Shown here: one piece after another, positions 4,379 through 22,700 of the stretch
How the letters are laid out: every line of letters begins with the position of its first letter
How positions within the stretch are numbered: position 1 is the stretch's first letter
NCBI RefSeq assembly: GCF_003688725.1
Contig: NZ_REFP01000007.1
Location: 64,291 to 88,290, forward strand
Reading direction: 5' to 3'
Length of the DNA: 24,000 nt
Source of the DNA: Thermoactinomyces vulgaris
Lineage (GTDB): Bacteria; Bacillota; Bacilli; Thermoactinomycetales; Thermoactinomycetaceae
Notes under the pieces: model-generated
Told to the model about the DNA's origin: nothing
Databases searched by the model: none
The model's input: only the letters and a program-made list of their open reading frames with translations
Made by a program: the position numbers and the translations under genes

Positions 4379-4389
4379 GTTGACCTCCG

Positions 4390-5496
4390 TTAATTATGGT
4401 GTCTTGAACGCCGGTTGCGGATCCAGGCAACCACCAGTGCGATCGGCACAATGATGAAGACCACGAAGAGCTCGATGTGCACCAAAATGGTGCCCAGGTT
4501 AAAAAATTCATTGATATCCGCCGGCAGGAATGCGATCAAAAAGATCAAGGGAGAGACTCCGTAGATAAAAAAACGGATGTTTTTTCCGGTAATTTGGGAA
4601 ATCCCCAGACAAAAGATGTATTGCATGCTCACATAGGTGGCGAAGATTTGCAAGATCCAGACGGCCAGCAAAAACACTTCATATCGTTCGAAAAATATGC
4701 CTGTCAGTTCGTAGGAGCGGATTAATTCAATGGTCGGAAAAGTGAGGGTGATCGTCTGATCCGGTCCCAATCCGCCCACCACGACAATCACAATGACAAC
4801 GTAAAAGAGTGCGGGCACCAAAATCCCGGCGGAAATCGCTTTCCATGCTTCTTTTTTTCGTTGCATGAATGCGTTTAACACCAACATGAATTCATAACCT
4901 GAAAACGTCAGGGATGAACCGTGAATCCCTTTGATCACCGGTTCCACCCCCATTCCCATGACCGGCAGAATGTTTCGCCATTCAAACACTTTAAAGCTGG
5001 TGGCCAATACGACAAAGAAAAAGAAGAGAGTGATGGGAAGCAAAATTTCAAACATCCGGGCGACGGCAACGATTCCGCCGGTCATCAGATAAATCCCGAC
5101 AAACACCATGAGCGATATGGATACAGCCGGCGGGGTGTTGGGAAGCAAATAGAAGTGTGTCACCTCGGCCATGCCTCTCAATTCATAGCCGGCAGTGATA
5201 AAAAGATATGAGAGAAAGATCAAATTGGCCAAATTGCCGATCCATTTGCCAAAGATTTGCGTGCTGTATTGAAAAAAAGTTTGATCCGGATAATACCGGT
5301 TCAACCGGATAATCAACCATCCCATCAACAGAAGAATCAGGGTTGCAAGAATGACCGAAATCCAACCGTCCTGTCCTTGTGTGTCTTCCGTGACATTCCG
5401 GGGAAGGGTTAGGACGCCCATTCCCAGAATGACCGAGGCGATGAATATCGATGTTTGAATGGTGGTGATCTGTTTCCGATTGCTGTCTAGCATCAC
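4390..5496 (-). CDS. Spore germination receptor subunit B (GerAB/APC-type permease)
   Basis: 368 aa and very hydrophobic with multiple predicted TM segments. The N-terminus KQITTIQTSIFIASVILGMGVLTLPR is typical of GerAB-family permeases. It sits between the A and C subunits. The start could be GTG 5496 or ATG 5493. Confidence 0.9.
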   Translation of the reverse strand: MMLDSNRKQITTIQTSIFIASVILGMGVLTLPRNVTEDTQGQDGWISVILATLILLLMGWLIIRLNRYYPDQTFFQYSTQIFGKWIGNLANLIFLSYLFITAGYELRGMAEVTHFYLLPNTPPAVSISLMVFVGIYLMTGGIVAVARMFEILLPITLFFFFVVLATSFKVFEWRNILPVMGMGVEPVIKGIHGSSLTFSGYEFMLVLNAFMQRKKEAWKAISAGILVPALFYVVIVIVVVGGLGPDQTITLTFPTIELIRSYELTGIFFERYEVFLLAVWILQIFATYVSMQYIFCLGISQITGKNIRFFIYGVSPLIFLIAFLPADINEFFNLGTILVHIELFVVFIIVPIALVVAWIRNRRSRHHN

Positions 5497-5506
5497 GACA
5501 CATCCT

Positions 5507-7060
5507 TCATTGTTTTTGCCGGACCGGGTCTTGGGGTTTTAAGGTGACCGGACGGCGGTTTGTGCGACTCAGCGGCGACCGGAACAAAATGTCTTTCCAA
5601 TCTTGGGTTCGTATGGGGGCAATCGGTGCCAAGTAAGGGAATCCGAAGCTTTCCAAGCGGACGAGATGAGTCATTGTTAACAAGAAAAAGATGATGATCC
5701 CGTACAAACCGAAAAAGGCGGCAAATAACATGAGCACAAAGCGCAAATACCGGAGAGCGATCCCGGCGTTATATTGGGGGATGGCAAAGGATGAGATCGC
5801 TGTCACCGCAACCACCACCAACAAGATGGGACTGACAATGCCAGCTTGCGCAGCGGATTCCCCGATCACCAACCCGCCGACAATACCCACGGTCTGGCCG
5901 ACCGATTTGGGAAGACGGAGCCCGGCTTCCCGCAACACTTCAACTGCCACTTCCATAAACAACGCCTCCAAAACCGACGGGAAAGGCACACCTTCCCGGG
6001 TGGCGGCAATGCTCATCGCCAGCCTTGTCGGGATCAGCCCTTGATGGAAGGAGGTAAAGGCGATATAGAAAGCCGGCAGGGAAATCGACAGAAAAGCAGA
6101 CATGTACCGCAAGTAACGTAGCAGGATCCCCGGAATCCAACGGGTGTAGTAGTCTTCCGGCGATTGCAAAAACATCCAAAACGTGACAGGTACAATCAGG
6201 GCAAAGGAGGTCCCGTCCAGAAGTATCGCCACCCGTCCTTCTGTCAGCGCCCCCGCCACCCGGTCCGGACGTTCGGTGTCTTGCACTTGCGGAAATGGAG
6301 AAAAGGTGTTGTCTTCGATCAAATGCTCAATATAACTGGTGTCCAATACTTCATCGATGTCGATCTCTTTTATGCGTTGATCCACCGTTTTGACCAATTC
6401 CGGGTCTGCGAGGTCCTGGATGTAGACGACTGACGCTTTGCGCTGTGTCCGCCTTCCGAGAACATAGGACTTATAAGTAAGATTCGGCGTGGCCAAACTT
6501 TGCCGGAGCAGCGCCAAATTGACTTCCAGCGAGTTGGTGAAACCGATTTGGGGTCCCCGGACAATTGCTTCGGTTTCGGAGGGTCCCAAGCTGGTTGTCA
6601 ACTTCTTGCTAGTGGCCATTACAATTGCTTGGTCGCATCCGTCCACCAACACGGCCGTGGATCCCCGGATCAAATGGATGAAAATATCCGAATAGCTTTG
6701 AATTGATTTGATCTTATAGAAACTTAAAACGTGGTTTTTGATCAAGTTGATGATTTCATCCGACTGGATGAATTCGGTTTCCCCGGTGGTGAATTCATCC
6801 CAGTTGTGCATCAAACGGTCGAGAATTTGTTCGTTGATGGTTTTCTCATCCACCATTTCTTTCATAAACAAACAGGCCGCCTGGATGTTGGTCCCGCCGA
6901 TTCGAAAGGAACGGATGGTCAAGTCCGGATGTTGTTCTGTCAGTTTGTTGAAATAATTCACATTGGTTTCAAGGTTGTTTTTCAAACGATCCGTATCGGC
7001 TGATTGTTTGTTTTCATGTATGTCTTTTTTCCGTTTCCGGTAGAAATGGCGCTTGATCAA
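5507..7060 (-). CDS. Spore germination receptor subunit A (GerAA family)
   Basis: 517 aa. It has a soluble N-terminal domain followed by a C-terminal TM bundle (GLRLPKSVGQTVGIVGGLVIGESAAQAGIVSPILLVVVAVTAISSF), characteristic of GerAA/GerBA/GerKA. TTG start at 7060 with an AAGGA SD. It begins 14 nt after the stop of the small ORF. Confidence 0.9.
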   Translation of the reverse strand: MIKRHFYRKRKKDIHENKQSADTDRLKNNLETNVNYFNKLTEQHPDLTIRSFRIGGTNIQAACLFMKEMVDEKTINEQILDRLMHNWDEFTTGETEFIQSDEIINLIKNHVLSFYKIKSIQSYSDIFIHLIRGSTAVLVDGCDQAIVMATSKKLTTSLGPSETEAIVRGPQIGFTNSLEVNLALLRQSLATPNLTYKSYVLGRRTQRKASVVYIQDLADPELVKTVDQRIKEIDIDEVLDTSYIEHLIEDNTFSPFPQVQDTERPDRVAGALTEGRVAILLDGTSFALIVPVTFWMFLQSPEDYYTRWIPGILLRYLRYMSAFLSISLPAFYIAFTSFHQGLIPTRLAMSIAATREGVPFPSVLEALFMEVAVEVLREAGLRLPKSVGQTVGIVGGLVIGESAAQAGIVSPILLVVVAVTAISSFAIPQYNAGIALRYLRFVLMLFAAFFGLYGIIIFFLLTMTHLVRLESFGFPYLAPIAPIRTQDWKDILFRSPLSRTNRRPVTLKPQDPVRQKQ

Positions 7061-7302: not shown

Positions 7303-8604
7303 TTAATCCTTAGCTTGGCAATATTGTGCCTCTTTTCCGATGACCCGATAGGGACAATCGGCTTGTTCCGCCAGATAAAGAGCCGCTTCCCGGTTCCGTT
7401 CCGTTTCGCGTTCAATGACTTCATCCGGTGGATAAAAGCCTCCGCCGGAGGTTCCTTTCGGATACATTTCAAACGTGAAGGCGAAGATGTTATGTTCGCC
7501 GTATGCCCAGTCGGTCATGTCTCCATCCGTGATGTACAAGTCGCTGGATTGTTGGGGGGTGTAACCGTTGGTTTCAGCCATGGTTTCCCCCATGGTTTTA
7601 AATACCTGATAATCATCAGCGCTCATGTCATCCGGGGTGTTTTCGTAGGTGTATCCGTAGGGCCACAAGATCAATTCGCTGTAGGTGTGAAAACTGATGG
7701 CCGTTTTGATTTGCTGTTCCCCGTTGATCACCCGGCTGTTGACGAAATCGCGGAGAGCAGCAGTTTCCGGTGCGGAAAAAGGAGCTTGTCCGCGATAGGT
7801 TTCACTGGACGGATTGCTGCTGGAACCTCCGCAACAACCCCACTGGTAACCGTAGTTCCGGTTCAAGTCGGTGCCGATGGAGGAAGATCCGCTGTTGGGC
7901 TGGCGATTTTTGCGCCAGTATTGGTATTTGCCGGTGGAGATGTCGTACTCTCCCCCGTCGGGGTTCATATTAAAGAGGATGTAGATTTCCCGGGAATCGA
8001 CAATCTCTTTGATTCTCGGATCGGTGGCATAATTGTCGGTGTACAGGTGGAGCAGATAAAGAGCCATTTCAACGGTTAAATGTTCGCGGGCATGATGCAG
8101 GGAGGCGTAGAGAACTTCCGGCTCGTCTTCATCCTCTTGAACGTTGTCGCTGATCTTCACCGCCCACAGGTCACGGTTTTCATATGATTTTCCAATGCTG
8201 AATTTGCGGACGATGTCGCCGTGATCGGAAACGGCTTGATCAATCTCTTTAACCATTTCGTCATAGTTGTGGTAGCGGGAGTCGGCATCGGGGAAATCGA
8301 GGGTTCCCAACACCGGCTCGGCTTTGGGTTGAAAGCCTTTTTCTTTCAGGCTTTTCAGTTCCGTGTCGGTTGCAAGCACTCTCACATAATCCGCTCCGAC
8401 CTCTTCGATGGATGCACCGGTCCGGGCAATTTCGGTTCGTTGTTCTTTGCTTTTGACTTCAGGGATGTGGTAGAATCCGGTGGTGGAAAAACGGTTTTCA
8501 TCCAAGGATTCTGTTGCGCTGTTGACAAAGCCGGTCATCGGAAAGGCCGCCAAAAGCATCAGGGAGACAGTCAGGGAAAACCACCGTTTTTTACGGGAAA
8601 GCAT
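7303..8604 (-). CDS. Secreted M14 zinc carboxypeptidase, carboxypeptidase T-like (pre-pro-enzyme)
   Basis: The mature region ([16 protein letters not shown]...[17 protein letters not shown]...NPDGGEYD...[38 protein letters not shown]...[15 protein letters not shown]...[13 protein letters not shown]...FAFTFEMYP) is near-collinear with Thermoactinomyces vulgaris carboxypeptidase T as I recall it. That includes the HxxE zinc motif and the FHTYSE histidine. Preferred start is ATG 8604 (GAAAGGAG SD 11 nt upstream), which gives the signal peptide [27 protein letters not shown]. Confidence 0.9.
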
Positions 8605-8640
8605 GGGAACAAAGGCACTCCTTTCAAAAATATAATGAAT

Positions 8641-8691
8641 TGGATAAAGATTGAAACTATTCAATTGATAAAAGAAGGCAATCTTTATCCA
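8641..8691. repeat. Perfect 13-bp inverted repeat (25-bp spacer) in the carboxypeptidase upstream region
   Basis: TGGATAAAGATTG (8641-8653) and CAATCTTTATCCA (8679-8691) are exact reverse complements. The repeat lies 37-87 nt upstream of ATG 8604. Confidence 0.6.
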
Positions 8692-8879: not shown

Positions 8880-10232
8880 TTAAAGTTCCAATATCATTTT
8901 GGCAATCGTCATGTAAATGATCAATCCGGTTCCATCCACCAAGGTGCTGATCAATGGTCCGGAAACGACCGCCGGGTCTGCTTTCAGCCGGCTCAGGATC
9001 AGCGGCAATGCTGCGGAAACCACGGACGACCAGATGACAATAAACATCGCAGCCAACGCGACCACATAAGCCACGTCAAAGGTGACGCCCATGATCCAAG
9101 CCCGGATAAAGCCGATCAGTCCCAGCGACATGCCGAGAAACATTCCGGTGAGGAGTTCTTTTTTGATGACACGGAACAAATCTTGAAACTTGACTTCCCC
9201 GACACCGAGGGCCCGGATCAGTGTGGTGACAATTTGCGAACCGGTGTTTCCGCCTGTCCCGATTAACAAAGGGATAAAAAAGGATAGGGCAACCACTTGA
9301 TCCAGCGTGCTCTGGTAACTTTCCAAAACTGTTGCGGTATAAGCACCTCCGACAAACAAAATGAAGAGCCAGACAATCCGTTTCCGGTATAAACTCCAGA
9401 TGGAGGTTTTGAAGTAAGGTTCGGTCAACGGTTGGCTTCCTCCGATTTTTTGGATGTCTTCGGTTGCTTCTTCCTGAATGACCTCGACCACATCATCGTA
9501 GGTGACGATTCCGATCAACCGGTGTTGCCGGTCCACGACGGGTACGGCATAAAAACCGTAACGGGACAAAACCGATGCGACCTCTTCCTGTCCGGTTTCG
9601 GCCGGAACGGAAATGATATCGGTTTTGGCGATGTCGGAAAGCGGGGTTTTCGGATCGGCCAAAATGATTTCTTTGAGTGAAGCCACGCCAAAAAGTTTGC
9701 CACGTTGGTCGGTGACATAGATGTAGGAGACAATCTCCGCTTCATAACCCACTTTCCGGATGTGCCGGATGGTTTGTTCCCCCGTCCAATAGGCCCGGGC
9801 CGATACATAATCCACTGTCATCAAGCCGCCGGCCGTATCCTCCGGATAAGTCATTAGCTGTTTGATCTTTTTCCGGTAATCCGCCGGGAGCAGCCGTTGC
9901 AACTTTTCGGCTTGCAGCGGGTGGATGGCGAGCAGGAGGTCCACCACCATGTCACTGGACATTTGCTTGATCAATAACGAGGTGACCGTTTCGTCCATGC
10001 GGCTCAGCAACTCATAGGTTCTTTCCGGCTCGAGATATTCCAAAACTTCCGCGGCATGAGCCAAAGATAAATGGGTGATGAGTTCCCGTTGGAGATCCAC
10101 ATCCAAATCTCGGAAAATCTCGGCCAAATCGTATGGTTGCATTTGGCGCAAAAGCTCCAACAAGCGCGTTTCTTTTTTTTCGGAGCAGAACAGGTTTTGC
10201 AACTCTTCCTTGACGAAAGCTGCTTGACTCAT
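8880..10232 (-). CDS. mgtE: Magnesium transporter MgtE
   Basis: 450 aa with the MgtE architecture: N-terminal helical domain, tandem CBS region (DIISVPAETGQEEVASVLSRYGFYAVPVVDRQHRLIGIVTYDDVVEVI), and a C-terminal 5-TM domain with FIPLLIGTGGNTGSQ and ISTLVDGTGLIIY motifs. It is preceded by an M-box riboswitch. Confidence 0.95.
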   Translation of the reverse strand: MSQAAFVKEELQNLFCSEKKETRLLELLRQMQPYDLAEIFRDLDVDLQRELITHLSLAHAAEVLEYLEPERTYELLSRMDETVTSLLIKQMSSDMVVDLLLAIHPLQAEKLQRLLPADYRKKIKQLMTYPEDTAGGLMTVDYVSARAYWTGEQTIRHIRKVGYEAEIVSYIYVTDQRGKLFGVASLKEIILADPKTPLSDIAKTDIISVPAETGQEEVASVLSRYGFYAVPVVDRQHRLIGIVTYDDVVEVIQEEATEDIQKIGGSQPLTEPYFKTSIWSLYRKRIVWLFILFVGGAYTATVLESYQSTLDQVVALSFFIPLLIGTGGNTGSQIVTTLIRALGVGEVKFQDLFRVIKKELLTGMFLGMSLGLIGFIRAWIMGVTFDVAYVVALAAMFIVIWSSVVSAALPLILSRLKADPAVVSGPLISTLVDGTGLIIYMTIAKMILEL

Positions 10233-12186: not shown

Positions 12187-12190
12187 AAAA

Positions 12191-12230
12191 ATGTCCGCTT
12201 CAATTCGGGGTTGAAGCGGACATTTTTGTT
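12191..12230. terminator. Bidirectional rho-independent terminator between spoVR and the convergent repeat-protein gene
   Basis: ATGTCCGCTTCAA-ttcgggg-TTGAAGCGGACAT is a 13-bp perfect stem, flanked by AAAAAA upstream and TTTTGTTT downstream. Confidence 0.85.
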
Positions 12231-15200
12231 TATTCACCGGAACGCGGCTCCTCCTGTTGAGCATCTTCTGTTCCGGCTTCCGATCCGGTTTCCGGCTCCT
12301 CTTTACCCCGGGTTTTCATTTCCTCTTTATCCGGCGTTTCCGTTTCTTCTTCTTCCAGCTGTTTTTCTTCCCCGGTTGTTTCGGTTTCCGCGATGTCCGT
12401 TGCAGAGGAAATGGTTAACGGGAGAAAGGGTTGGACCGGGTCATCCGTTAATGGGTTGTGGTTTTGTTCATCTTCTTCTTCCTGTTTCACCGTTTTTGGA
12501 TGATGGTCGGAATTGGCGTTTTCCGGTTTTTTCTCTTCGCTTGCGACATTGTCTGTGTCCGGAACCGGGATGGCGGCAGGAATGTCATCCACCGGGGTTT
12601 GTCGGGCGAACCAGTGAAGCAATCCTTCGATGGAGGTCGTGGATTCATGATTGCGGTCGATTTGGATGACAAAGTGGTCGGCGTGATTTTCTTTCAGTGT
12701 CACCAGGCATTCCGGATGATTGGTGATGGCCACGACGGCATAGGGCGATTTAATCGGAGTGGCCAACGGGATTTGAAACGTCCGTCCGGACATATTTTCT
12801 TCCAGTTGGAAGCGGGCAATGCCTGAAACCGTGGCAGGTTGTTCATCCGCAAGGAGCGGACGGAAATTCAATTTCTCCAAGCCGATGCTTTGATCAGCGA
12901 TTTTTTCGGTGGTCACTGCTTGGTCCGTCAGATGTTCCGCAGAAATGGCGCCGGATTCAATGTGTGTTCCCTGGATTTGTTTTTTGGCGATGTGGCAGGA
13001 CAAAATCGCATCATCGTTGATATGGCGGGGGAAGATGGACTGGGATGCCAACTTGTCGGAATGAACGGCTTGATCTTGAAGCAGATCGGTTGAAATGGCT
13101 CCTTGCTCAATGTGCATTTCCTGGATTTGCCGTTGGGCAATGTGCCAGGAGCGCACGGAATCATCTGCGATATGGCGCGGCAAGATGGAATGCGAAGCCA
13201 GTTTGCCGGCATCGACCGCGTCATCTTGAAGATGGGCTTTGGTGATGGCTTCTTCTTGGATGTGCCGGCCGGAGACGGCCGTATCTTCAATATGGTGGCC
13301 TTGGATTTGCTCTTTTTCAATGTGCCGGGACAAAACGGCACCGGCTGAAATGTGCGGGGACAAGATTGCATTTTGGGCCAGATGGCGGGCCGCGATGGCT
13401 TCATCCTGGATGTGTCCGGATGCCACGGATTGTTCCGCGATATGCTTCGACTCGATTTGCTTTTCCTGAATATGCCCGGATTGAATGGCCTCTTCTTGGA
13501 TGTGCCGGCCGGAGACGGCTGTATCTTCAATATGGTGGCCTTGGATCTGTTCTTTTCTGATATGACGTGACAAAACGGCACCGGCTGAGATGTGCAATGA
13601 CCCGACAGCTTCCTCGTTCAGATGATGTTCGCAAATCGAGTTTTCATCCAGGTGTCCGCTTTGGATCTGTTGTTCCCCGATGTGGTGAGACAAAACGGAT
13701 GCGGCGGACAGATGCCGGGACGATATGGAGTCGGATGTCAAATGCCGGGAAGAAACCGTTTCATCACAGAGCAGCTCCCCGGAAATGGATTGTTCCTGAA
13801 TGTGCCGGGCGCTGATTTGCTTATCCTGAATATGCTCGGCGTTGACGGCTTTATCTTGAATATGACGGGATTTGATCTGGTGATTGGCGATTTTTTCGCT
13901 GACGATGGCATGGTCTTTTAAATGGTCCGTGTGAATTTCGCCGTGTTTCAGATGTTTTGCGTTGATTGCCCCGTCCTCAATGTGATTTTCGCCGATGGAT
14001 TGGTCTTGCAGATGGTGGCTTTGGATCTGCTTTTCCCCGATATGCCGGGATAATACGGCTTCAGCGTCAAGATGTCGGGATTCGACCGATTTTTCTCCAA
14101 GGTTGCGGGCATGGATCGCTTCATTTTGGATCAGTTCGTTGGAAATGGACTGGTCTTTGATGTGCTCCGGACCAATTTGTTTTTCCCGGATGTGGCGGGA
14201 GGTGACGGATTCGCTGTGGAGATGGCGGGAATCGATTTCGCCTTCTCCGATTTTTTCTGCGGTCACTGCTTGATCTTTCAAATGCCGTGTGTGAATTTGC
14301 CCGTTTTTGATGTGATGGTCCTCAATGGACTGATCCGCAATATGTTGGTTTTCGATGACGGAGTGGTCCAGTTTTTCTTTGGTGATGGCTCCGTCGACGA
14401 TGTGGGTGGACTGGACGGAAAAAGGTGCGATGTGATGGCCGCTGATGGTGGCGGATCCGATGTGTTTTCCCTGAATGCTTTCATTGGCCAGTTTATCCCC
14501 GTAGACGGATTCGTCCGCCAGATGTTTGTGTTGGATTTGCCCCCGGTCAATGTGTCTGGACTGGATGATCTGTTCTCCCAGATGTTCCCGCAAAATGGTG
14601 TGGTGTCCGATTTTTTCGGACGTGACGCATCCGTTGGCCAGTTTGTTCGAAGTGATGGCAAAGTCGTTGATTTTGTCGGTGGATACCGATTCCGGAGCCA
14701 GTTTGGAAGTGGAAATCGAATGGTCGATCAACTTGGAACCGGAAATGGAATGATTGGCCAAATGTTGCTCATTGATGCTTGCTTCCTGGATGTGGCGTTT
14801 GTTGATGCTGTTTTCTTGCAGGTGTTCTTCGCCGATGATTTTCCTGTTCAGATGTTTTTCCTGAATGGCGCCTTCGGCAATGGCTTCGGCATGGACACTG
14901 TTTGGGGCGATGTGTTGTTCTTTGACGGAATCCGGGGTCAAATGTTCATGGGTGATGATGCCCGGCTGCAAATGATCTTTGTGAATGGATTGATTTCGGA
15001 TTTGTTGTCCGGTGATGGATTGATGGGTGATTTTTTCCCCCGGGATGGATTGTTCCCCGAAATGGTGGGGGCTGATGGCTTTTTCCTGAATGTGGGAACC
15101 TTGAATGGAGCCGGGTTGAATGTGTTGGGATTCGATGGATTGAGATGCGATTTTGTCGCTGGTGACAGCGCCGTTTTGCAATTTGCTTTCGGAGACGGAT

Positions 15201-15901
15201 TCATCGGCCAGTTTTGCTTGGTTCACGACTTCGTTTTCCAAATGAATGGTGCGGATGGAACCGCTTTTTAATTTTTCGCCGCTGATGGACTGATCGGCCA
15301 AATGCTCATTTAAAATATGGCCCAGTGACAAATGTTTGCTTTGGATCGAGCGTTCTTTGAGTTTGCTTTCATTGATGCTGCCGTCTGATAATTTGCTGCC
15401 GGGAATTTCATTGTCTTTAATGTGTTTGGCTTGAATGGAATCTTTTTTGATGTGGCTTCCTTCAATGGAATCATGATCCAGATGGAAGGAGCGGACTGCA
15501 TTTTTGGCAATTTTTTGTGAGGTGACGGCTTCATTTTTCAATTTGGATTCGGTTACGGCCGCCTGTTCAAGGTGATCGGTGCCAATGCTGTCCGGTTTGA
15601 TCTTTTTCCCGCTGATCGACTGGTTGGCGATTTTTTCCTCCGTGACGGCGGCGTCGGCGATGTCATTGGTGTAAATCGGCGAATGGCTTTGCCGGGTCTG
15701 GGTGGATGAAGTTTTTAAAGGTTTGGATAAATCGGACAGTTCCGCGGTGTTTTCCATGTCTTCCAACAGACCGGTTTTGTTCCGTTTCTTTTTCAATTCT
15801 GCTTGCTCCAATTGAATGAGTTCCTCCAAAATTCGTTCATCGGCCATGTAAGGAGAGGGACGTTCCCTTTTTTTGGCTGAATGAGACTTTCTCTTCTTCA
15901 A
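12230..15901 (-). CDS. Large (1,223 aa) decapeptide-repeat, histidine-rich protein of unknown function. It has a basic/coiled N-terminus, about 93 tandem 10-residue units, a non-repeat C-terminal module and an acidic tail
   Basis: A single uninterrupted ORF. TTG start at 15901 sits 8 nt after a strong GAAAGGAG SD. Internal diverged duplications differ mainly at synonymous positions, which supports real translation. No signal peptide. It ends at the bidirectional terminator. Confidence 0.85.
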   Translation of the reverse strand: MKKRKSHSAKKRERPSPYMADERILEELIQLEQAELKKKRNKTGLLEDMENTAELSDLSKPLKTSSTQTRQSHSPIYTNDIADAAVTEEKIANQSISGKKIKPDSIGTDHLEQAAVTESKLKNEAVTSQKIAKNAVRSFHLDHDSIEGSHIKKDSIQAKHIKDNEIPGSKLSDGSINESKLKERSIQSKHLSLGHILNEHLADQSISGEKLKSGSIRTIHLENEVVNQAKLADESVSESKLQNGAVTSDKIASQSIESQHIQPGSIQGSHIQEKAISPHHFGEQSIPGEKITHQSITGQQIRNQSIHKDHLQPGIITHEHLTPDSVKEQHIAPNSVHAEAIAEGAIQEKHLNRKIIGEEHLQENSINKRHIQEASINEQHLANHSISGSKLIDHSISTSKLAPESVSTDKINDFAITSNKLANGCVTSEKIGHHTILREHLGEQIIQSRHIDRGQIQHKHLADESVYGDKLANESIQGKHIGSATISGHHIAPFSVQSTHIVDGAITKEKLDHSVIENQHIADQSIEDHHIKNGQIHTRHLKDQAVTAEKIGEGEIDSRHLHSESVTSRHIREKQIGPEHIKDQSISNELIQNEAIHARNLGEKSVESRHLDAEAVLSRHIGEKQIQSHHLQDQSIGENHIEDGAINAKHLKHGEIHTDHLKDHAIVSEKIANHQIKSRHIQDKAVNAEHIQDKQISARHIQEQSISGELLCDETVSSRHLTSDSISSRHLSAASVLSHHIGEQQIQSGHLDENSICEHHLNEEAVGSLHISAGAVLSRHIRKEQIQGHHIEDTAVSGRHIQEEAIQSGHIQEKQIESKHIAEQSVASGHIQDEAIAARHLAQNAILSPHISAGAVLSRHIEKEQIQGHHIEDTAVSGRHIQEEAITKAHLQDDAVDAGKLASHSILPRHIADDSVRSWHIAQRQIQEMHIEQGAISTDLLQDQAVHSDKLASQSIFPRHINDDAILSCHIAKKQIQGTHIESGAISAEHLTDQAVTTEKIADQSIGLEKLNFRPLLADEQPATVSGIARFQLEENMSGRTFQIPLATPIKSPYAVVAITNHPECLVTLKENHADHFVIQIDRNHESTTSIEGLLHWFARQTPVDDIPAAIPVPDTDNVASEEKKPENANSDHHPKTVKQEEEDEQNHNPLTDDPVQPFLPLTISSATDIAETETTGEEKQLEEEETETPDKEEMKTRGKEEPETGSEAGTEDAQQEEPRSGE
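12863..15670 (-). repeat. In-frame 30-bp (decapeptide) tandem repeat array, about 93 units, degenerate at the DNA level
   Basis: Residues ~78-1013 follow [S/A]-[I/V]-x-x-x-[H/K]-[I/L]-x-x-x without register breaks that I could see. Examples: SIEGSHIKKD SIQAKHIKDN, AVLSRHIGEK QIQSHHLQDQ. On the plus strand this shows as a recurring (g/a)atgtg every 30 nt. Confidence 0.9.
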
Positions 15902-16111
15902 AGGTCGTACTCCTTTCTATCGGGCATTTTCCACTCTCTTTTAGGTATATGCATCAAAATGAAAAATGGAAACATGTCAAATCAAAATCGCACAACGCCA
16001 GTATTCATCGGGTTTCCTAAGAATAACCATTTATTACATATTAAAGGAGCGTGGATTTATGTTAGTATGAACCTAGCTTTGGGAGCGGCAAAAATGGAAG
16101 AGGAGGATTTG

Positions 16112-16853: not shown

Positions 16854-16893
16854 AATGACTGCTCAGATCTTGTTTCTGAGCAGTCATTTGTTT
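16854..16893. terminator. Bidirectional terminator between the NlpC/P60 gene and the convergent GNAT gene
   Basis: AATGACTGCTCAG-atcttgttt-CTGAGCAGTCATT is a 13-bp perfect stem, followed by TGTTTAATTTT on the plus strand and TTCATTCGTT on the minus strand. Confidence 0.75.
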
Positions 16894-17389
16894 AATTTTC
16901 CGGAACCGGGATTCTGACAGACGGTTCGGATTTCTTCAACACGTCCGCCGGATCGAAATTTCCCCCGCCCAGCCAGAGGGTGTCTTTTCCGGTCGGGCCT
17001 TTACATAGCGAAAAAGCCATCAATCCGCATGAAAAACACAGTTTTAAGCTGGGGATGTTGTCGGAAGCGACCCGGGCATATACTTTCCCCAAGGATTGGA
17101 TCGCTTGCTTCAAAAGTTGTTCCCCCACCCGTTTCCGGCGGTAATCCGGATGGACCGCGATGAAAGATTCTTCAATTCCGTAGTTTCCAAAGACAATGAT
17201 TCCCGCCACTTTTTTTTCGTCATAAGCGGCGGCGATATAAGTTCCTTCCTTCAATTCTCCAGGCGTCAACCGGTGGAACCACCGCATCGCCTGATGGGTG
17301 ATTCTCCCGTCTCCGTATCGTCTCAAAAAGCGGAGCAGGGGTTTTCGGATCCGCTCCAACGATTGCGGCGGAAATGCATGAATTTTCAT
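16892..17389 (-). CDS. GNAT-family N-acyltransferase, last gene of the ATP-grasp operon
   Basis: 165 aa. GNAT core pattern YIAAAYDEKKVAGIIVFGNYGIEESFIAVHPDYRRKRVGEQLLKQAIQSL (beta4-alpha3 CoA pyrophosphate-binding region). Its ATG 17389 overlaps the upstream stop as ATGA. Confidence 0.75.
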   Translation of the reverse strand: MKIHAFPPQSLERIRKPLLRFLRRYGDGRITHQAMRWFHRLTPGELKEGTYIAAAYDEKKVAGIIVFGNYGIEESFIAVHPDYRRKRVGEQLLKQAIQSLGKVYARVASDNIPSLKLCFSCGLMAFSLCKGPTGKDTLWLGGGNFDPADVLKKSEPSVRIPVPEN

Positions 17390-18708
17390 GTCGCCGTCCC
17401 CTCCGATGTATGTGAAAATCCGCTCAGGTACAATGAGTATTCAATCAAACGGCGCAAAGACCGTCTCCGGATGTTGGGTTCGTCAAATTTCATCGGCTTG
17501 GAATTGGCCTCAAAGATCCAAAGGCTTCCGTCTTTTTCAATGCCGAGATCCATCGACATTTCCCCCAGGAGGGCGTTTTGTTGGTTTTCAATCCACCGGG
17601 CGGTCCGGATGCCGACTTGTTCGATCCGTTCTTTGATACGATCTGTTTCGCTGCCAAACACGGATTGAAGTACCGTGTCGATTTTTTCGATGTGCCCTCC
17701 CATGGGAACATGGGTGGAAATTGCCCGTTCGCCGGCCACCCGGACCCCCATCCCTGATAACCCCCATCGGCCGGTGCCGTTTTTCTGGAGCAAAATGCGG
17801 ATGTCAAACGGATGGCCGTGAAAGGTGGCCAACGGGATGCCTTGTTGCAAAATATAGGCGGTTTTTTGTTTCAGCCGGTTGTACAAATCCCAAACTTCTT
17901 TCAGGGTCCGCACCCGGTATTTCTTTTTTTCCCTGGTGGTCTGGTAGGAGAGTTCATAGTGCTGCTTTTTTTTGTCAAGGCGCATCATTTTGATGCCGGC
18001 TTTTCCTTCGACCGGTTTAAAATAAAGAACCGGATGTTTGGCGGCCATGCGCTCCAATTGTTCCATGTGGTGAAGCCGGACGGTTTCCGGTAACAGCCGG
18101 TGTAAGTCGGGAGAAGCGGCAAGCTGTTGGTACAGCGTCCATTTGTCAAAAAAGCCGGGGTTAAACAGGTAAACGCCCGGCATTTGCTGCAGTTGCCGGA
18201 TGGTTTGCCGGACTTCCGGGGTTTTTTCAATCATCCGGTTGGGGATGCGATTGTACACGACATTCGGGAAGGGCAGCCGGGCCGCTTTCCACCGCGGTTT
18301 CACCGAATGAGGATCCAGCAGATATCCGTTGACGGTGGAATGGTTGCCGATGCCTTGGGGCGTAAGGACAAACACGGTGACGCCCATTTCTCTTCCCGTC
18401 CGGATCAAGTCGGCGAAATTTTGGTGATTTCCTCCAAACGGCTTTTTATTGTTTGAGGTTAATATGGCGACAAAAGGACCGGCTTGATAATGATTCTTCC
18501 GGGACAAATGCCTGAGGCGGGCGGGCGTGTGATGGGATTGGCTGGGCCTGCCGTGGGGGTTGAATCTGATTTTCGCTTTCGTGTGACGGCCGATAATGGC
18601 AGAAACCATGCCGGGAAACTGTTTTTTTGGATATCGTCTGAGCGGAACAAATTCCAGGGTGTTTTTGTTTGGTACGATGGACAGCCAGCCGGCTTTGGGT
18701 AATTTCAT
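17386..18708 (-). CDS. YheC/YheD-family ATP-grasp protein, paralogue 4 (D)
   Basis: It shares family blocks with the three upstream paralogues: PFVAILTS, FPNVVYNRIPNR, LPET, VLYFKP, HPFDIRILLQKNG, EMSMDLGIEKDGSLWIFEANSKP. Preferred start is ATG 18708 (GGGGGAG SD 9 nt upstream), which avoids a 28-nt overlap with paralogue C. Confidence 0.85.
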   Translation of the reverse strand: MKLPKAGWLSIVPNKNTLEFVPLRRYPKKQFPGMVSAIIGRHTKAKIRFNPHGRPSQSHHTPARLRHLSRKNHYQAGPFVAILTSNNKKPFGGNHQNFADLIRTGREMGVTVFVLTPQGIGNHSTVNGYLLDPHSVKPRWKAARLPFPNVVYNRIPNRMIEKTPEVRQTIRQLQQMPGVYLFNPGFFDKWTLYQQLAASPDLHRLLPETVRLHHMEQLERMAAKHPVLYFKPVEGKAGIKMMRLDKKKQHYELSYQTTREKKKYRVRTLKEVWDLYNRLKQKTAYILQQGIPLATFHGHPFDIRILLQKNGTGRWGLSGMGVRVAGERAISTHVPMGGHIEKIDTVLQSVFGSETDRIKERIEQVGIRTARWIENQQNALLGEMSMDLGIEKDGSLWIFEANSKPMKFDEPNIRRRSLRRLIEYSLYLSGFSHTSEGTAT

Positions 18709-18728
18709 AAGATGGCGCTCCCCCTTTG

Positions 18729-20096
18729 TTAAATGAAGTTGGTCAGATTTAAACAATAATCGGTTATATATTTTGCAGACATGCGCCCGGCTTCGCGCAA
18801 ACTCGGATGCAAGAAGATGTGCCTGCCCGGTTTGGCATTCACTTCAAAAAGCCAAACGCGGCCGTTGCGGTCCACCCCGATGTCCAGCCCCAACTCTCCC
18901 AGGGTTCCGTCAATCTGTTCTTCCAATGTTTCGGCAATGGTGATGGCGGAGCGGATGATCATTTTTTTCACTTCAGAGGCATGCTGATGGAATGTTTTAA
19001 GAAGCAGTTCATCCGTCCGGATGATGGAGCCTCCGGTCCTGACATGTGTTGTGACGCAACCGAAACCGGCTGCCTTGGAGCCGATGGCAACCACTTTCCA
19101 GTGCCCTTTGCTGTCTTTGTGCATGTGAACACGGAAATCGACAGGTCGGTGGTTATTCCGGATCAACCGGATCCCCTGCTGAACGAGATATTTTTTGAAC
19201 CGGGGAGAGTGGATGCTGCCAAAATAATGGCTGATTAACGCTTTTAAAGACCGGAACAGGTGAAGGACGTTTTTGTTCCCTTTGTGGAACCGGCAATAGT
19301 AACCTTTTCCCGGGTGGTAAGTGATGCGGAAAATCCCCAGCCCCAAACTGCCGCCACTGGGCTTTAAATAGACCATCCGATGCTCTTTCAGCATTCTTTC
19401 CATGATCTCCAGAGTGGGGGGCATGTAAGTTTCGGGCATGAAAGTGGATGTTGCCGGATGGTGGTTCAGCATCTGATGGATGGACCATTTGTTGAAAAAG
19501 CCTTGGTTGAAGATTTTGCAAGCGGTGTTTTTTTTGAAGCGGTTTAAACAGGACTGAACCTGGGCCATGGATTCAGCCCGGCGATTGGGAATCCGTTCAT
19601 AAATGACATCGGGAAACGGTGAGAACAAGGGATGCCAACGATTTTGGAAGAAGTACCATCCCCGGACGGTTTGATTCTGCCAATTCACCATTTCCGGAGT
19701 AAAGACATAGATGAATGGTTTTTCGTCAAAACCCGCTTGAATGAAACTACGAAATAACTGGGTCCGGTTGCCGAAAGGTTGTTCCGGGTGGTGGCGGAAA
19801 CCGGTGGTGAGGATGCCGATCACGGGTCCGAATTTCAACGTTTTGTCGGTAAACAGAGCCCGGATGGTTCCCGTGTAAGGGAAGAGCAACTGTCTGGCGA
19901 CCGCCGGGGAAAGGAAAATCTTGTTTCCGGCCAGTGGAGCGATGATCACCCGGGTGATCATCGTTTTGTTTCCAAGTTGAATTTTAATGGATTGCCCGCT
20001 TTGGCATCCCCATAAATTCCCTAATGCCTGGCTGATCACAATGGCTTTGGCCGGAGTTTTGGAGTGAATTCGTATTTGGCAAAGGATTGATTTCAT
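18729..20096 (-). CDS. YheC/YheD-family ATP-grasp protein, paralogue 3 (C), with an N-terminal ~95-aa extra domain
   Basis: Family blocks: FGPVIGILTT, FPDVIYERIPNR, MPET, MVYLKPSGGSLGLGI, RPVDFRVHMHKD, ELGLDIGVDRNGRVWLFEVNAKPG. The ATG lies 10 nt after the stop of paralogue B, with a GAGGG SD in the gap. Confidence 0.85.
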   Translation of the reverse strand: MKSILCQIRIHSKTPAKAIVISQALGNLWGCQSGQSIKIQLGNKTMITRVIIAPLAGNKIFLSPAVARQLLFPYTGTIRALFTDKTLKFGPVIGILTTGFRHHPEQPFGNRTQLFRSFIQAGFDEKPFIYVFTPEMVNWQNQTVRGWYFFQNRWHPLFSPFPDVIYERIPNRRAESMAQVQSCLNRFKKNTACKIFNQGFFNKWSIHQMLNHHPATSTFMPETYMPPTLEIMERMLKEHRMVYLKPSGGSLGLGIFRITYHPGKGYYCRFHKGNKNVLHLFRSLKALISHYFGSIHSPRFKKYLVQQGIRLIRNNHRPVDFRVHMHKDSKGHWKVVAIGSKAAGFGCVTTHVRTGGSIIRTDELLLKTFHQHASEVKKMIIRSAITIAETLEEQIDGTLGELGLDIGVDRNGRVWLFEVNAKPGRHIFLHPSLREAGRMSAKYITDYCLNLTNFI

Positions 20097-20106
20097 ACTG
20101 ACCCTC

Positions 20107-21207
20107 CTAGCTGTTCAATAAGGCATTCGCATATTGAATGGGAAACTGGATGGCACGCCGCCGCACTTCCAGTTCTCCGGTTTTTAAGAAAACGGACCGC
20201 CCGGGTTTTGAGTTGACTTCAATAATCCAGACATCTTTGTTTTCATCGATGCCGATATCGATTCCCAGCTCTACCAGAGGACCGTGACGGCTTTCGATAA
20301 ACGGGGGCACGATTTCACTCAGATAGTTGATGGTCGAGGAAATTTTGGCTGCTTCTTGCGGGGTGTAATGCTGCTTTAAAAAAGGTTGGAACGGTAAAGC
20401 TTGCCCGCCGCCGTGCAAATTGGAGGTGATGGAATCGGGTTGGCCGGTCCGGATGGCATGCCCCGTTGTTTCCCATCTTTTTTGTCCGTTTTTTTGGACC
20501 AGAATCCTGACATCAAACGGGCGTCCATCCGGTGTGTTCAGCGACAAAAGAGGTTGAAGGATGTAACGGGTGTCCCGGATGGTTTGTTCCACCCAATGGC
20601 TGAGTTGGACCAGGGTTTGAAATTGAACGGAAAAAGGCCGGTTGAATTTCGTCCGCCCTTTCAGCAAGAAAGAGGAGGGGGGGATTTGTTCGATGGCGAC
20701 CACTCCTCTTCCGTGACTGCCGCCATTGGGTTTGATCAAAACACGGTTATGTTTCCGGAGGAAAGAGAACAGCTCTTGTGCATGGGTCAACCGCTTGGTT
20801 TCCGGGAGATAAGTCCGGATTTCCGGATGCTCTTTCAAGATGAGATAGGTTTGGTATTTCCCGCCCAAAGCTCTTCCAAGCAACCGGATTTGCGGGTCTT
20901 GGGTGATTTTTTGAACATGGGGTTTATACTTCATATAATGCCGGGCGTTGACATAATAACAACGGTCATAGATCAAATACGGCAGCGGAACCGTCTGTTG
21001 TTTCCAACGCTGATTGTGATAATGCCAAGCCGGAACCGTTCTGGTTTTCCAATGAATCCGGCCCGGATTGAATATAAAGACTTCCAGCCCCTGCTTTTTT
21101 CCTTCGAGTGTCAGTTGTTCAAAGAATGTGTGCTCTTTAAACGGAGGGTGTTTTTGGTTGTTTCCGTAGCAAACCATTATGCCAAGCCTGTTTTTTTGAT
21201 CGGTCAT
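20107..21207 (-). CDS. YheC/YheD-family ATP-grasp protein, paralogue 2 (B), lacking the N-terminal extra domain
   Basis: 366 aa. Family blocks: RLGIMV, LPYLIYDR, LPET, VLIKPNGGSHGRGV, RPFDVRILVQKNG, ELGIDIGIDENKDVWIIEVNSKPG. The start overlaps the stop of paralogue A as ATGA (21204-21207). Confidence 0.85.
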   Translation of the reverse strand: MTDQKNRLGIMVCYGNNQKHPPFKEHTFFEQLTLEGKKQGLEVFIFNPGRIHWKTRTVPAWHYHNQRWKQQTVPLPYLIYDRCYYVNARHYMKYKPHVQKITQDPQIRLLGRALGGKYQTYLILKEHPEIRTYLPETKRLTHAQELFSFLRKHNRVLIKPNGGSHGRGVVAIEQIPPSSFLLKGRTKFNRPFSVQFQTLVQLSHWVEQTIRDTRYILQPLLSLNTPDGRPFDVRILVQKNGQKRWETTGHAIRTGQPDSITSNLHGGGQALPFQPFLKQHYTPQEAAKISSTINYLSEIVPPFIESRHGPLVELGIDIGIDENKDVWIIEVNSKPGRSVFLKTGELEVRRRAIQFPIQYANALLNS

Positions 21208-22628
21208 CGCCGTTGCCTCCTCATGATCCCGGAAGTCGTCGAAGGAGAAGGGGCGGGAGGATGTTTTCCTTGCTTGGAAAGGTATAGCACGTAGTCGATC
21301 AACCGCAACACGGACGGGCGAAAATGGCTGTTTGGATTAATCACGGTGTCATCGGTTTTGGATGGTTTGGAATTGATTTCAATCAGCCAGATTTTTCCGT
21401 GCACATCAATGGCCAGATCGATTCCGAGTTCGGCGAAATGGCCGTCGGCCAAACGTTCAAACGTTTTGGCGATGTCAAGTGCGGCGGCCCGAAGTTGGTG
21501 GATGGACGGTTTGTTTGGATAGGACAATTCCTTCAAAACATCACTTGCTTTGCGGATTGTACCTCCACGGGCCAGATTGGATACAATATGTTGAATGTTG
21601 GCAATCCGCGCAACGGAAGAAGTGATTTTCCAAACCCCTTCCTTGGTTTTTTGTGCCAAAATGCGAAAGTCTACCGGCCGGTAGTCAAATTTCATCAGCC
21701 TGAGTCCCTGTTGGGCGATGTAAGGCTGGCTTCTGATTTTTTGTTTTAACAATTTCATCAGGCTGGAATGGTTCTTCAAGGTTCGGCGAACCGTTCCCCC
21801 TGGAGTGGACAGTTGATAAATCCACCTGTTTTTGGAATGGGTTATCTTGATGATCCCGCTTCCCAGACTGCCGTTGGTCGGTTTGAGATAAACGGTGGAG
21901 TATCGTTTAAAGAGGGATAAGGCCCTCGGATCGCGGAATGAATAGGTTTCCGGCAATCGCGAACGGATTGCTTCATCTTGGACCAGGATTTGATAAACCT
22001 GTAATTTATCCAAAAACCTCTCATTAAAGATGGGGATCCGGAAAAGGTTTTTTAACAGGGACATTTTTTTCTGCAAAGATTCTTGTTGCTCGATGCGGCG
22101 TGAGTTGATGCGGTTGTAAATTACATCCGGGAGCGGGTATTTTGTACATTGCCACCGGTTTTTCTGTTTGATCCAGACGGTCGTTTCATTCCGGTTTAAA
22201 TCGATGTGTTCCGGCGTGATGACAGCGACCCGGATCCCTCTCATCTGACCGGCAGTGATGCATTCATCCAGAAATTTGGTCATCAGGCCAAAAGGTTGAG
22301 CACGCTTTTCCTGTGGATGGGCATTGATCAAAATGCCAAAAACAGGTCCAAATCGCAAGCGGAGAGAATGTGCGTCAAAATGGGCCCGAATCCATGGCTG
22401 AGGGTTCATTTTCAATTGCTCGGCAAGCTCAGAGCTGATGCAAATCAGTTTATGGTTCATGCGACTGAAAGCGACTCGTCCTTTTGCGATGGCTGAACCA
22501 AATGCGACTGAGAAAACCGGGGTTTTTATCTCCAATTTTTTGGCCAAAGCCTGACTCATCACCAGATCAATGTGGTGAGGAAGCTGATGTTGCGACAAGA
22601 TTTGAATTTGTACTTGTGCCAGCCCCAT
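21204..22628 (-). CDS. YheC/YheD-family ATP-grasp protein, paralogue 1 (A), with an N-terminal ~100-aa extra domain
   Basis: Family blocks: FGPVFGILIN, LPDVIYNRINSR, LPET, TVYLKPTNGSLGSGI, RPVDFRILAQK, ELGIDLAIDVHGKIWLIEINSKPS. Preferred start is ATG 22628 (GGAAGGGGA SD 5 nt upstream). The track start at 22685 has no SD. Confidence 0.85.
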   Translation of the reverse strand: MGLAQVQIQILSQHQLPHHIDLVMSQALAKKLEIKTPVFSVAFGSAIAKGRVAFSRMNHKLICISSELAEQLKMNPQPWIRAHFDAHSLRLRFGPVFGILINAHPQEKRAQPFGLMTKFLDECITAGQMRGIRVAVITPEHIDLNRNETTVWIKQKNRWQCTKYPLPDVIYNRINSRRIEQQESLQKKMSLLKNLFRIPIFNERFLDKLQVYQILVQDEAIRSRLPETYSFRDPRALSLFKRYSTVYLKPTNGSLGSGIIKITHSKNRWIYQLSTPGGTVRRTLKNHSSLMKLLKQKIRSQPYIAQQGLRLMKFDYRPVDFRILAQKTKEGVWKITSSVARIANIQHIVSNLARGGTIRKASDVLKELSYPNKPSIHQLRAAALDIAKTFERLADGHFAELGIDLAIDVHGKIWLIEINSKPSKTDDTVINPNSHFRPSVLRLIDYVLYLSKQGKHPPAPSPSTTSGIMRRQRR

Positions 22629-22639
22629 GACAATCCCCT

Positions 22640-22700
22640 TCCGCCTGTAAAATACTAATGTATGGTATGTGGGCGTCAACCGCATGGTGAATAAAACAGG
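22640..22700 (-). promoter_or_regulatory. Candidate promoter region of the ATP-grasp operon (ambiguous sigma assignment)
   Basis: The minus strand reads ...TTCACCATGCGGTTGACGCCCACATACCATACATTAGTATTTTACAGG. One reading is sigma-A-like: TTGACG (22679->22674), 16 nt, TAGTAT (22657->22652). Alternatively there are two overlapping CATAnnnTA motifs (CATACCATA and CATACATTA) with an AC 17 nt upstream of the first. That resembles the mother-cell sigma-K pattern as I recall it. These are low-information motifs. Confidence 0.3.

Follow-up and report, generated by a model that had tools for sequence, protein, structure and literature searches.

A histidine-rich decapeptide array in a WIAG-tail protein of Thermoactinomyces vulgaris, a candidate spore-surface fibre with a shaft of the phage-fibre type

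BclA, the collagen-like filament glycoprotein of the exosporium in the Bacillus cereus group, has no signal peptide and comprises an N-terminal anchoring segment, a shaft with a variable number of repeats, and a C-terminal β domain. Another kind of shaft occurs in phage tail and head fibres (PHROG 892, PF25296, gp28 in 8I4M, and orf16 in 9EG4), which are projecting homotrimers with phage N-terminal adaptor domains and receptor-binding tips; here long arrays are built from the unit x-A/S-V/I-T/S-x-x-K/H-I/L-x-D. A five-residue period centred on an aliphatic residue is also found in pentapeptide-repeat proteins (Rfr fold; PF00805 and PF13599). This study concerns a gene in a 24,000-nucleotide (nt) stretch of Thermoactinomyces vulgaris (assembly GCF_003688725.1, contig NZ_REFP01000007.1, positions 64,291 to 88,290), referred to below as the window. 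The gene codes for a protein of 1,223 residues with a His-rich shaft of the phage-fibre type and a C-terminal domain of the WIAG-tail family. Our reading, to which we assign a probability of about 0.5, is that it is a modular spore-surface fibre of this family with the anchor, shaft, and knob layout of BclA, in which a phage-type decapeptide shaft has become His-rich and charge-switchable. The narrower proposition, of a WIAG-tail structural fibre whose shaft is of the phage-fibre type, is highly probable. The repeat type was already known from phages, and the WIAG domain already had a label at NCBI; contributed here are the link between the two, the recognition of His-rich shafts as a trait of a spore-former family, the anchor-shaft-knob layout, and the coat-type gene neighbourhoods.

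An earlier reading made from the letters alone (the sequence-only reading) had placed the gene at exactly the position and size found here. The gene and the parts of its product are as follows.

12230 to 15901, reverse strand: complete coding sequence, 1,223 codons and a stop codon, TTG start (read from the sequence)
15910 to 15916, reverse strand: ribosome-binding site AAAGGAG, 8 nt ahead of the TTG start (read from the sequence)
15779 to 15901, reverse strand: N-terminal module, residues 1–41, a basic stretch MKKRKSHSAKKRERP followed by an acidic/hydrophobic motif Y...EL..L.. (motif common to relatives)
15680 to 15778, reverse strand: low-complexity linker, residues 42–74 (sequence; linkers of variable length stand at the same place in relatives L007 and L009)
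12860 to 15679, reverse strand: decapeptide array, residues 75–1014, an entry motif PIYTNDIADAAVT followed by 93 units (periodicity, PHROG tail-fibre matches, and structure model)
12605 to 12823, reverse strand: WIAG-tail domain, residues 1027–1099, a predicted six-strand β domain with the motifs AITNHPEC and HWFA (NF012201 match, alignment of relatives, and structure prediction)
12233 to 12571, reverse strand: acidic C-terminal tail, residues 1111–1223, with E26, D9, T13, and P11 and a net charge of -25 (composition)

The 93 units of the array (residues 85–1014) have the consensus [S/A]-[I/V]-x-x-x-[H/K]-[I/L]-x-x-x. Ile, Val, Leu, or Phe occupies each fifth residue at 189 consecutive positions (residues 76–1016) with no indel, as the sequence-only reading had described. 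The probability of such a run arising by chance is ~1e-118 because only 23% of the array is aliphatic (fraction 0.23). The autocorrelation is 0.84 for Ile/Val/Leu at lag 5 and 0.48 for His at lag 10. At the DNA level the copies are 60–83% identical and all of their spacings are multiples of 30 nt, so the periodicity is kept by selection on the protein and does not reflect recent slippage, recent expansion, or an artefact of assembly. One internal duplication looks recent: positions 13245–13384 and 13485–13624 (140 nt, 240 nt apart) are 83% identical and correspond to residues ~765–804 and 845–884 (SxHISAGAVLSRHIxKEQIQGHHIEDTAVSGRHIQEEAI), the remaining DNA copies being 60–71% identical. Open reading frames on the opposite strand within 12211–15271 (for example 14072–15271, forward strand, 399 residues, itself periodic in sequence) were rejected as genes; Pfam lends them no support, and they look like a side effect of repeat DNA that is periodic and poor in stop codons. 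In the protein as a whole, a Pfam search gave zero matches, with no cell-wall anchor or S-layer homology domain among them, and no signal peptide or membrane segment was found (maximum Kyte-Doolittle mean over 19 residues, 0.96). Both the lack of a signal peptide and the basic N terminus had been noted from the letters.

The repeats are akin to those of phage fibres. The array matched the PHROG tail-fibre family phrog_892 in 15 stretches with E=3.1e-122; another nine PHROGs of fibre, tail, or virion proteins also gave matches. A Foldseek search of BFVD with the repeat model described below returned 16 significant matches (E down to 1e-8), of which those whose names are informative belong to phage tail-fibre proteins. 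The sequence-only reading had pointed to a kinship with Lys-type decapeptides of fibre-like and phage-tail proteins, and these matches bear it out. The 120 best remote homologues listed from a collection of 5.8 billion proteins are all large; T7 tail-fibre N-terminal domains, endosialidase-chaperone domains, or phage-fibre repeats are present in several. The Lys-type version of the unit is covered in some of them by DUF5907 and, weakly, by the Pfam model PF25296 ("Decapeptide repeat region"); neither model matches the T. vulgaris protein, PF25296 giving nothing at E <= 1. His and Lys alternate at the same slot in these phage-type homologues too, with total His at <=3.3%. One of the remote homologues (P0040, 1,514 residues) carries a CotH kinase domain (PF08757, a family of kinases of spore-coat proteins) C-terminal to Lys-type decapeptides; it is another hint that the repeat is also used with coat-type modules outside phages.

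The chains in the PDB matched by the repeat profile are designed and natural pentapeptide-repeat proteins, IcmE/DotG, gp28 of cyanophage P-SCSP1u, orf16 of LME-1 (9EG4), and a tail-tip fibre. Homotrimers are described in the papers on P-SCSP1u and on Legionella phage LME-1, in both of which the distal repeat-bearing parts are unmodelled (PMC10575957, PMC12407071). Judging from the contents of the capsid entry 9EG4, orf16 of LME-1 is apparently a head-decoration protein; the name orf16 does not appear in the paper. The phage fibres and the T. vulgaris protein share the five-residue aliphatic period, long arrays free of indels, and the same predicted fold in BFVD. Unlike the phage fibres, which are mostly of the Lys type, the T. 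vulgaris gene is chromosomal and has no phage neighbours: no capsid, portal, terminase, tail, baseplate, integrase, or lysis gene is present in the 24-kb window. Searches of 50,697 phage genomes and of 2.9 million viral contigs (IMG/VR) did not turn up its WIAG knob, which speaks against a current role in a phage.

The domain that directly follows the array places the protein in the WIAG-tail family. The NCBIfam model NF012201 ("WIAG-tail domain") matches at 41 bits against a curated cutoff of 33 (E=1.5e-10), over profile positions 5–77 of 80. The signature AITNHPEC is present (AMTNHPxC in the family), and the invariant Cys and Trp are kept in an alignment with relatives (A1). In common with NF012201 proteins, the protein has its domain right after a largely His-bearing array, a basic N-terminal module, the entry motif, and a host among the endospore-forming Bacillales. 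It differs from a typical NF012201 protein in that the WIAxG motif has degenerated (WIAIG to WFARQ, with Trp kept and Gly lost) and in that the domain is not at the extreme C terminus. Of nine metagenomic members, seven end <=10 residues past the motif, whereas here the domain is followed by 124 more residues. This acidic extension is also present in members from the Thermoactinomycetaceae, including the relatives from Marinithermofilum and Polycladomyces, and in the unplaced fragments P0124 and P0126.

When the last 111 residues were used as query in an exhaustive HMMER search, only 8 matches came from 1.8 billion representative proteins. At least five of the eight have the same design, His/Lys decapeptides followed by the domain (…AMT[ND]HP.C…W[IM]A…), and several also have an acidic tail. 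Named sources are Polycladomyces subterraneus (labelled "WIAG-tail domain, partial" at NCBI), Marinithermofilum abyssi, and Caldalkalibacillus salinus. The families of all four named hosts, Thermoactinomyces included, form endospores. Most records of the family are partial because assemblies break inside the arrays. In P. subterraneus contig L003, a run of N (a scaffold gap) lies inside the repeat array and shows how the "partial" labels originate. A scan of metagenomes with the better-conserved domain of the short form added nine further loci, with open frames of 250 to >2,083 residues and unbroken aliphatic runs of up to 399 pentads. The exact T. vulgaris sequence is absent from a collection of 15 billion proteins, and a full-length homologue search was dominated by repeat-only matches at 19–32% identity and did not recover the protein itself. 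No functional study or description of the WIAG-tail family was found in the searchable literature; one giant-virus annotation carries the name. The sequence-only reading knew of no described His-substituted version of the decapeptide. This needs correction, His-rich arrays being the norm in a family that is labelled at NCBI, and the protein is not a one-off; in the literature that was searched, the family is functionally uncharacterised.

The number of decapeptides varies among the relatives from 0 to about 200, and His fills 30–100% of the [H/K] slots. The zero-repeat form is a metagenomic protein of 192 residues (P0128), in which the N-terminal module is joined to the WIAG domain by a non-periodic linker; its existence supports a modular view of anchor, shaft, and knob. 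The basic stretch and the motif Y..EL[KR][WL]xD[DE] of the N-terminal module recur in the complete family members P0128, L007, and L009, and the array-entry motif [VI]YT[DN]D[IL]xDxAVT is common to the T. vulgaris protein, L007, L009, and L011. From these comparisons, the family is modular and comprises an anchor-like N-terminal module, a shaft whose length varies, and a knob, and we propose that the N-terminal module of the T. vulgaris protein is its anchor.

Histidine enrichment runs through the family. His makes up 4.4–9.6% of residues in eight of the nine metagenomic members and 3.4% in the ninth. In fragments L006 and L010 it fills essentially every [H/K] slot. The L006 array (positions 3–1091) is a near-perfect 20-residue super-repeat, GEGEVTGQHIGAGEVTGRHI, with His in 25 of 26 decapeptides, and looks recently expanded, unlike the old, diverged array of T. 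vulgaris. The T. vulgaris protein has one of the highest His fractions among complete members (102 residues, 8.3%; 68% of slots). Slot 6 of the 93 units holds His in 63, Lys in 24, and another residue in 6. At least one His is found in 72 units and at least two in 19, and HH occurs in 9, with no longer His runs. The 92 histidines of the array agree with the earlier estimate of about 90; the statement that a His stands at nearly every unit goes too far, since the slot is His in 68% of units and 77% have a His at any position. The shift from a Lys-rich N-proximal to a His-rich C-proximal part, also noted before, is evident from the His/Lys counts at the slot in successive thirds of the array (17/12, 21/8, and 25/4). 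When His and Lys usage is compared with homologues, the two residues occupy the same slot throughout, and total His rises from <=3.3% in the phage-type proteins through 5.5–5.7% in the WIAG relatives P0126 and P0129 to the value given above.

The residue before the slot changes along with it. It is Arg, His, or Lys in 33 of the 63 His units and Glu, Ser, or Asp in 19 of the 24 Lys units, a compensated change in which "E-K" has in effect been replaced by "R-H". The net charge of the array goes from -40 to +52 when its neutral histidines become protonated, so the charge of the shaft would reverse around the pKa of the imidazole. Because His and Lys share the slot both within the protein and across homologues, the slot is probably exposed and accessible and not that of an obligatory buried metal ligand. 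The histidines may serve in a response to pH or in coordination of metal between chains or between fibres.

For the fold of the repeats, AlphaFold2 (AF2) run on the single sequence of residues 795–1105 was uninformative, with a predicted local distance difference test score (pLDDT) of < 35 for the repeats. An alignment (A4) was then used that contained only 28 in-register, non-overlapping repeat segments, 4 from the T. vulgaris protein and 24 from remote homologues. With it, residues 795–1004 were modelled at a mean pLDDT of 81, with the pattern '---HHH----' in every decapeptide and no β-strand; each helical turn consists of three residues and ends in the His or Lys of the slot. A Foldseek search of the PDB with this model gave 0 matches, pentapeptide-repeat structures included. 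The sequence-only reading had suggested a β-solenoid or fibre in which the histidines would stack into a ladder; the β-solenoid is not supported. The i-2 positions of the array are polar or charged (Q18/G18/E16/K9 and E19/R19/D9/K8), models of pentapeptide repeats stay below threshold, and the only confident model of the repeat sub-segments, itself a prediction, has one short helical turn per unit and no strand.

At the locus, the fibre gene and spoVR are convergent, and the fibre gene ends 2 nt before a hairpin that separates the two. A peptidase gene of the NlpC/P60 type is divergent from the fibre gene, and a metallo-β-lactamase-fold protein is also encoded nearby. Other features of the window are listed below; the gerA operon, the carboxypeptidase, and MgtE lie upstream of spoVR and are ordinary for a spore-former.

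12187 to 12227, no strand assigned: hairpin with a 19-bp stem and A-/T-run flanks between the stop codons of spoVR and the fibre gene, placed as a putative bidirectional terminator
3203 to 7060, reverse strand: complete gerA-type germinant receptor operon (GerAA, GerAB, and GerAC)
7303 to 8664, reverse strand: M14 zinc carboxypeptidase
8880 to 10232, reverse strand: MgtE Mg2+/divalent-cation transporter
16892 to 22685, reverse strand: GNAT acetyltransferase followed by four tandem ATP-grasp paralogues of the YheC/D type, an apparent operon

YheC and YheD are spore-coat-associated in Bacillus subtilis. The four YheC/D genes lie 1.5 kb from the fibre gene, and a YheC/D gene also flanks the distant family member L009. 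Three of the four paralogues have weak similarity to tubulin-tyrosine-ligase or sugar-transfer ATP-grasp proteins. In Polycladomyces, too, spoVR is convergent with the WIAG-tail gene, and the pairing is thus found in two genera; in P. subterraneus, a pair of transposase-like open reading frames (an insertion sequence element; L003, 2022–3493) lies between the two genes. L009 stands among glycosyltransferases of families GT4 and GT2, RmlA/B/D (dTDP-rhamnose), and an APH-family kinase. Next after L007 come a double GT2 protein and two kinases that have "CotS family spore coat protein" as their top NCBIfam match. In these gene sets there is a resemblance to cotS/cotSA and sps/rml, which surround spore-surface glycoproteins and of which the rml genes beside bclA are one case. 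In the L007/L008 allele the σK consensus AC-N17-CATA-N3-TA occurs in exact form 59 nt ahead of the start, for which the chance probability is ~0.7% per region. The earlier guess of a spore-surface component made by the mother cell thus gains contextual support from the Polycladomyces pairing, from the YheC/D, glycosyltransferase, rml, and CotS-like neighbours, and from the one allele with a σK-type promoter.

A scan of one genome per species found a single locus, that of Thermoactinomyces intermedius DSM 43846 (L001), which is collinear over 20.6 kb at 97.7% DNA identity. The orthologue is 100% identical over residues 1–1014 and 96% identical over the whole protein. Codons 1–1014 differ by two synonymous changes only, a synonymous divergence (dS) of 0.003. 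In the WIAG domain dS is 0.25, with a ratio of nonsynonymous to synonymous divergence (dN/dS) of 0.29; the corresponding values in the tail are 0.31 and 0.39, and in neighbouring divergent blocks 0.13–0.18 and about 0.1. The stretch 12230–13000 is the most divergent of the 20-kb comparison (13–17% per 250 nt) in a wider region that is a mosaic of blocks at 0% and at 4–6%. Two metagenomic fragments represent further alleles, their best local alignments being 81–85% identical. At its 3' end the gene seems to have acquired an older allele through recombination where the array meets the domain, and the elevated dS of the C-terminal module fits such an import. Diversifying selection on this module was considered and rejected, dN/dS being 0.29–0.39 and dS elevated; the pattern is one of exchange of modules.

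We propose that the protein would be made in the cytoplasm of the sporulating Thermoactinomyces cell, on the mother-cell side, and mounted on the exterior of the spore, as are the collagen-like BclA filaments of Bacillus exosporia. The missing signal peptide suits this route, because deposition by the mother cell needs no export signal. The basic N-terminal module would act as the anchor, and the 93 decapeptides would form a long thin rod, possibly trimeric as in the phage fibres, with one helical turn per unit and the period-5 aliphatic residues as a buried seam. The 80-residue β knob of the WIAG-tail domain and the acidic tail would lie at the distal end. With His in a solvent-accessible slot and R-H in place of E-K, the surface of the shaft would be charge-switchable and capable of binding metal. 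The design logic is that of BclA in that there is no signal peptide, a (proposed) N-terminal anchoring segment, a shaft with a variable number of repeats, and a C-terminal β domain, and relatives of the gene stand beside rhamnose-synthesis and glycosyltransferase genes, as does bclA. The shafts are different, the predicted helical-turn decapeptides contrasting with the collagen triple helix of GXX repeats; the T. vulgaris protein has no collagen-like GXX tract, and the two proteins have no sequence similarity.

Several results weigh against this proposal. The repeat model is that of a monomer, made from a shallow alignment of 28 rows that were drawn partly from the protein itself. AF2 gave the WIAG domain six β-strands with moderate confidence (block-mean pLDDT 52–75), and a Foldseek search with that model found nothing significant (all E > 0.03). 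A scan for σA, σE, σG, and σK promoters upstream of the T. vulgaris gene gave nothing convincing, only a CATA stretch with the wrong spacing. The gene is convergent with spoVR, and co-transcription is therefore not implied. The CotS-like kinases score 129 and 92 bits, below the cutoff of 172.7, and the glycosyltransferase and rml neighbours belong to distant relatives and not to the 24-kb window.

Other explanations of the protein can be judged against the same evidence. It might be chiefly a metal-handling device that binds or sequesters Ni, Zn, Cu, Co, or Mn or forms a metal-cross-linked matrix, its fibre shape being secondary. Such a role, the main functional idea of the sequence-only reading, overlaps with the fibre that we propose and would make sense of the 92 histidines of the array, 63 of them in one periodic slot, of the HH pairs in 9 units, and of an enrichment that is a family trait (4.4–9.6% in eight of nine metagenomic members against <=3.3% in phage-type proteins). 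Trimeric phage fibres also bind metal ions through His, as in T4 gp37, and the gene for the divalent-cation transporter MgtE is 2 kb away, which is weak evidence. However, the slot alternates freely with Lys, which is unexpected for an obligatory ligand, and no metallochaperone or metal-regulator genes are adjacent. His mostly occurs once per 10 residues, whereas metal sites typically have HxH or Hn clusters; in Hpn-like and HypB His-stretch proteins the histidines are clustered, whereas here they are periodic, with 9 HH doublets. We consider metal handling as the chief role rather unlikely. Somewhat more doubtful is a fibre of the vegetative cell surface or hyphal sheath, or a hydrophilic matrix protein, with the sporulation neighbours there by chance in a genome that has many genes of this kind. 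In its favour are the aerial hyphae of thermoactinomycetes, which bear surface structures, the cell-wall peptidases (NlpC/P60 and M14) encoded nearby, and the lack of an assignable promoter. However, distant members repeat the association with spoVR, YheC/D, and CotS-like genes, and because the protein lacks a signal peptide, a cell-wall anchor, and an S-layer homology domain, it would have no route of export from the vegetative cell, whereas deposition by the mother cell needs none.

It is very unlikely that the protein is a phage-derived fibre that still serves a mobile element, for example as a receptor-binding protein or as the fibre of a tailocin or of a cryptic prophage tail. It is true that phage tail-fibre families give the repeats their strongest database matches (to E=3e-122), the C-terminal module is a hot spot of recombination and divergence between close strains, as receptor-binding tips often are, and the top Foldseek matches of the WIAG model, weak and non-significant, are distal domains of pyocin fibres and tailspikes. 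These points are outweighed by the empty phage inventory of the 24 kb, by a chromosomal position next to spoVR that is kept in a second genus, by the knob without a counterpart in 50,697 phage genomes and 2.9 million viral contigs, and by a C-terminal dN/dS of 0.3–0.4, not >1. Least credible of all is a pentapeptide-repeat protein of the cytoplasm that would form a right-handed quadrilateral β-helix, either a DNA mimic like Qnr and MfpA or a regulator like HetL. The strict five-residue period and a weak profile similarity are common to both; PDB sequences of designed and natural pentapeptide-repeat proteins were matched weakly by the protein (E 3.5e-4 to 4e-3) and at about 1e-9 by the repeat profile. 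The NCBIfam models for HetL, Alr5209, and Qnr gave 22.7 bits against 260, 17.9 against 125, and 13.7 against 240, all far below cutoff, and the Pfam pentapeptide models did not match the protein. A pentapeptide β-helix core does not fit because the i-2 residues are polar or charged rather than small and buried. Unlike in pentapeptide-repeat proteins, the true unit has 10 residues and no β-strand is predicted, the PDB Foldseek search drew a blank, and the 940-residue array is far longer than known members.

A bolder extension of the spore-surface fibre that we favour is improbable as it stands. WIAG-tail proteins could be an unrecognised class of spore filaments outside the Bacillus cereus group, with a repeat shared with phages in place of collagen, and with periodic His and Arg as a metal or proton switch between chains. 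The rod may be >100 nm long, and the YheC/D and GNAT enzymes perhaps modify the acidic tail. If the switch exists, fibres of the outer coat would stiffen, cross-link, or collapse with pH or with Zn, Ni, Cu, or Mn.

The decapeptide is widespread in phage fibres and has no experimentally resolved structure, and a regular array of 940 residues from a thermophile is a good specimen for obtaining one. The replacement of Lys by His with a paired Arg offers a natural test case for a fibre surface that responds to pH or metal, and the array, with about 60 regularly spaced imidazoles per chain, could be used as a designable scaffold. The locus also links the WIAG-tail family and the poorly understood coat-associated YheC/D enzymes to a concrete structure. 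If the proposal is correct, endospore-formers outside the Bacillus cereus group carry very long spore fibres made of phage-type decapeptides, which would be a second solution, beside BclA, to the problem of building a filament that can vary in length and needs no secretion system.

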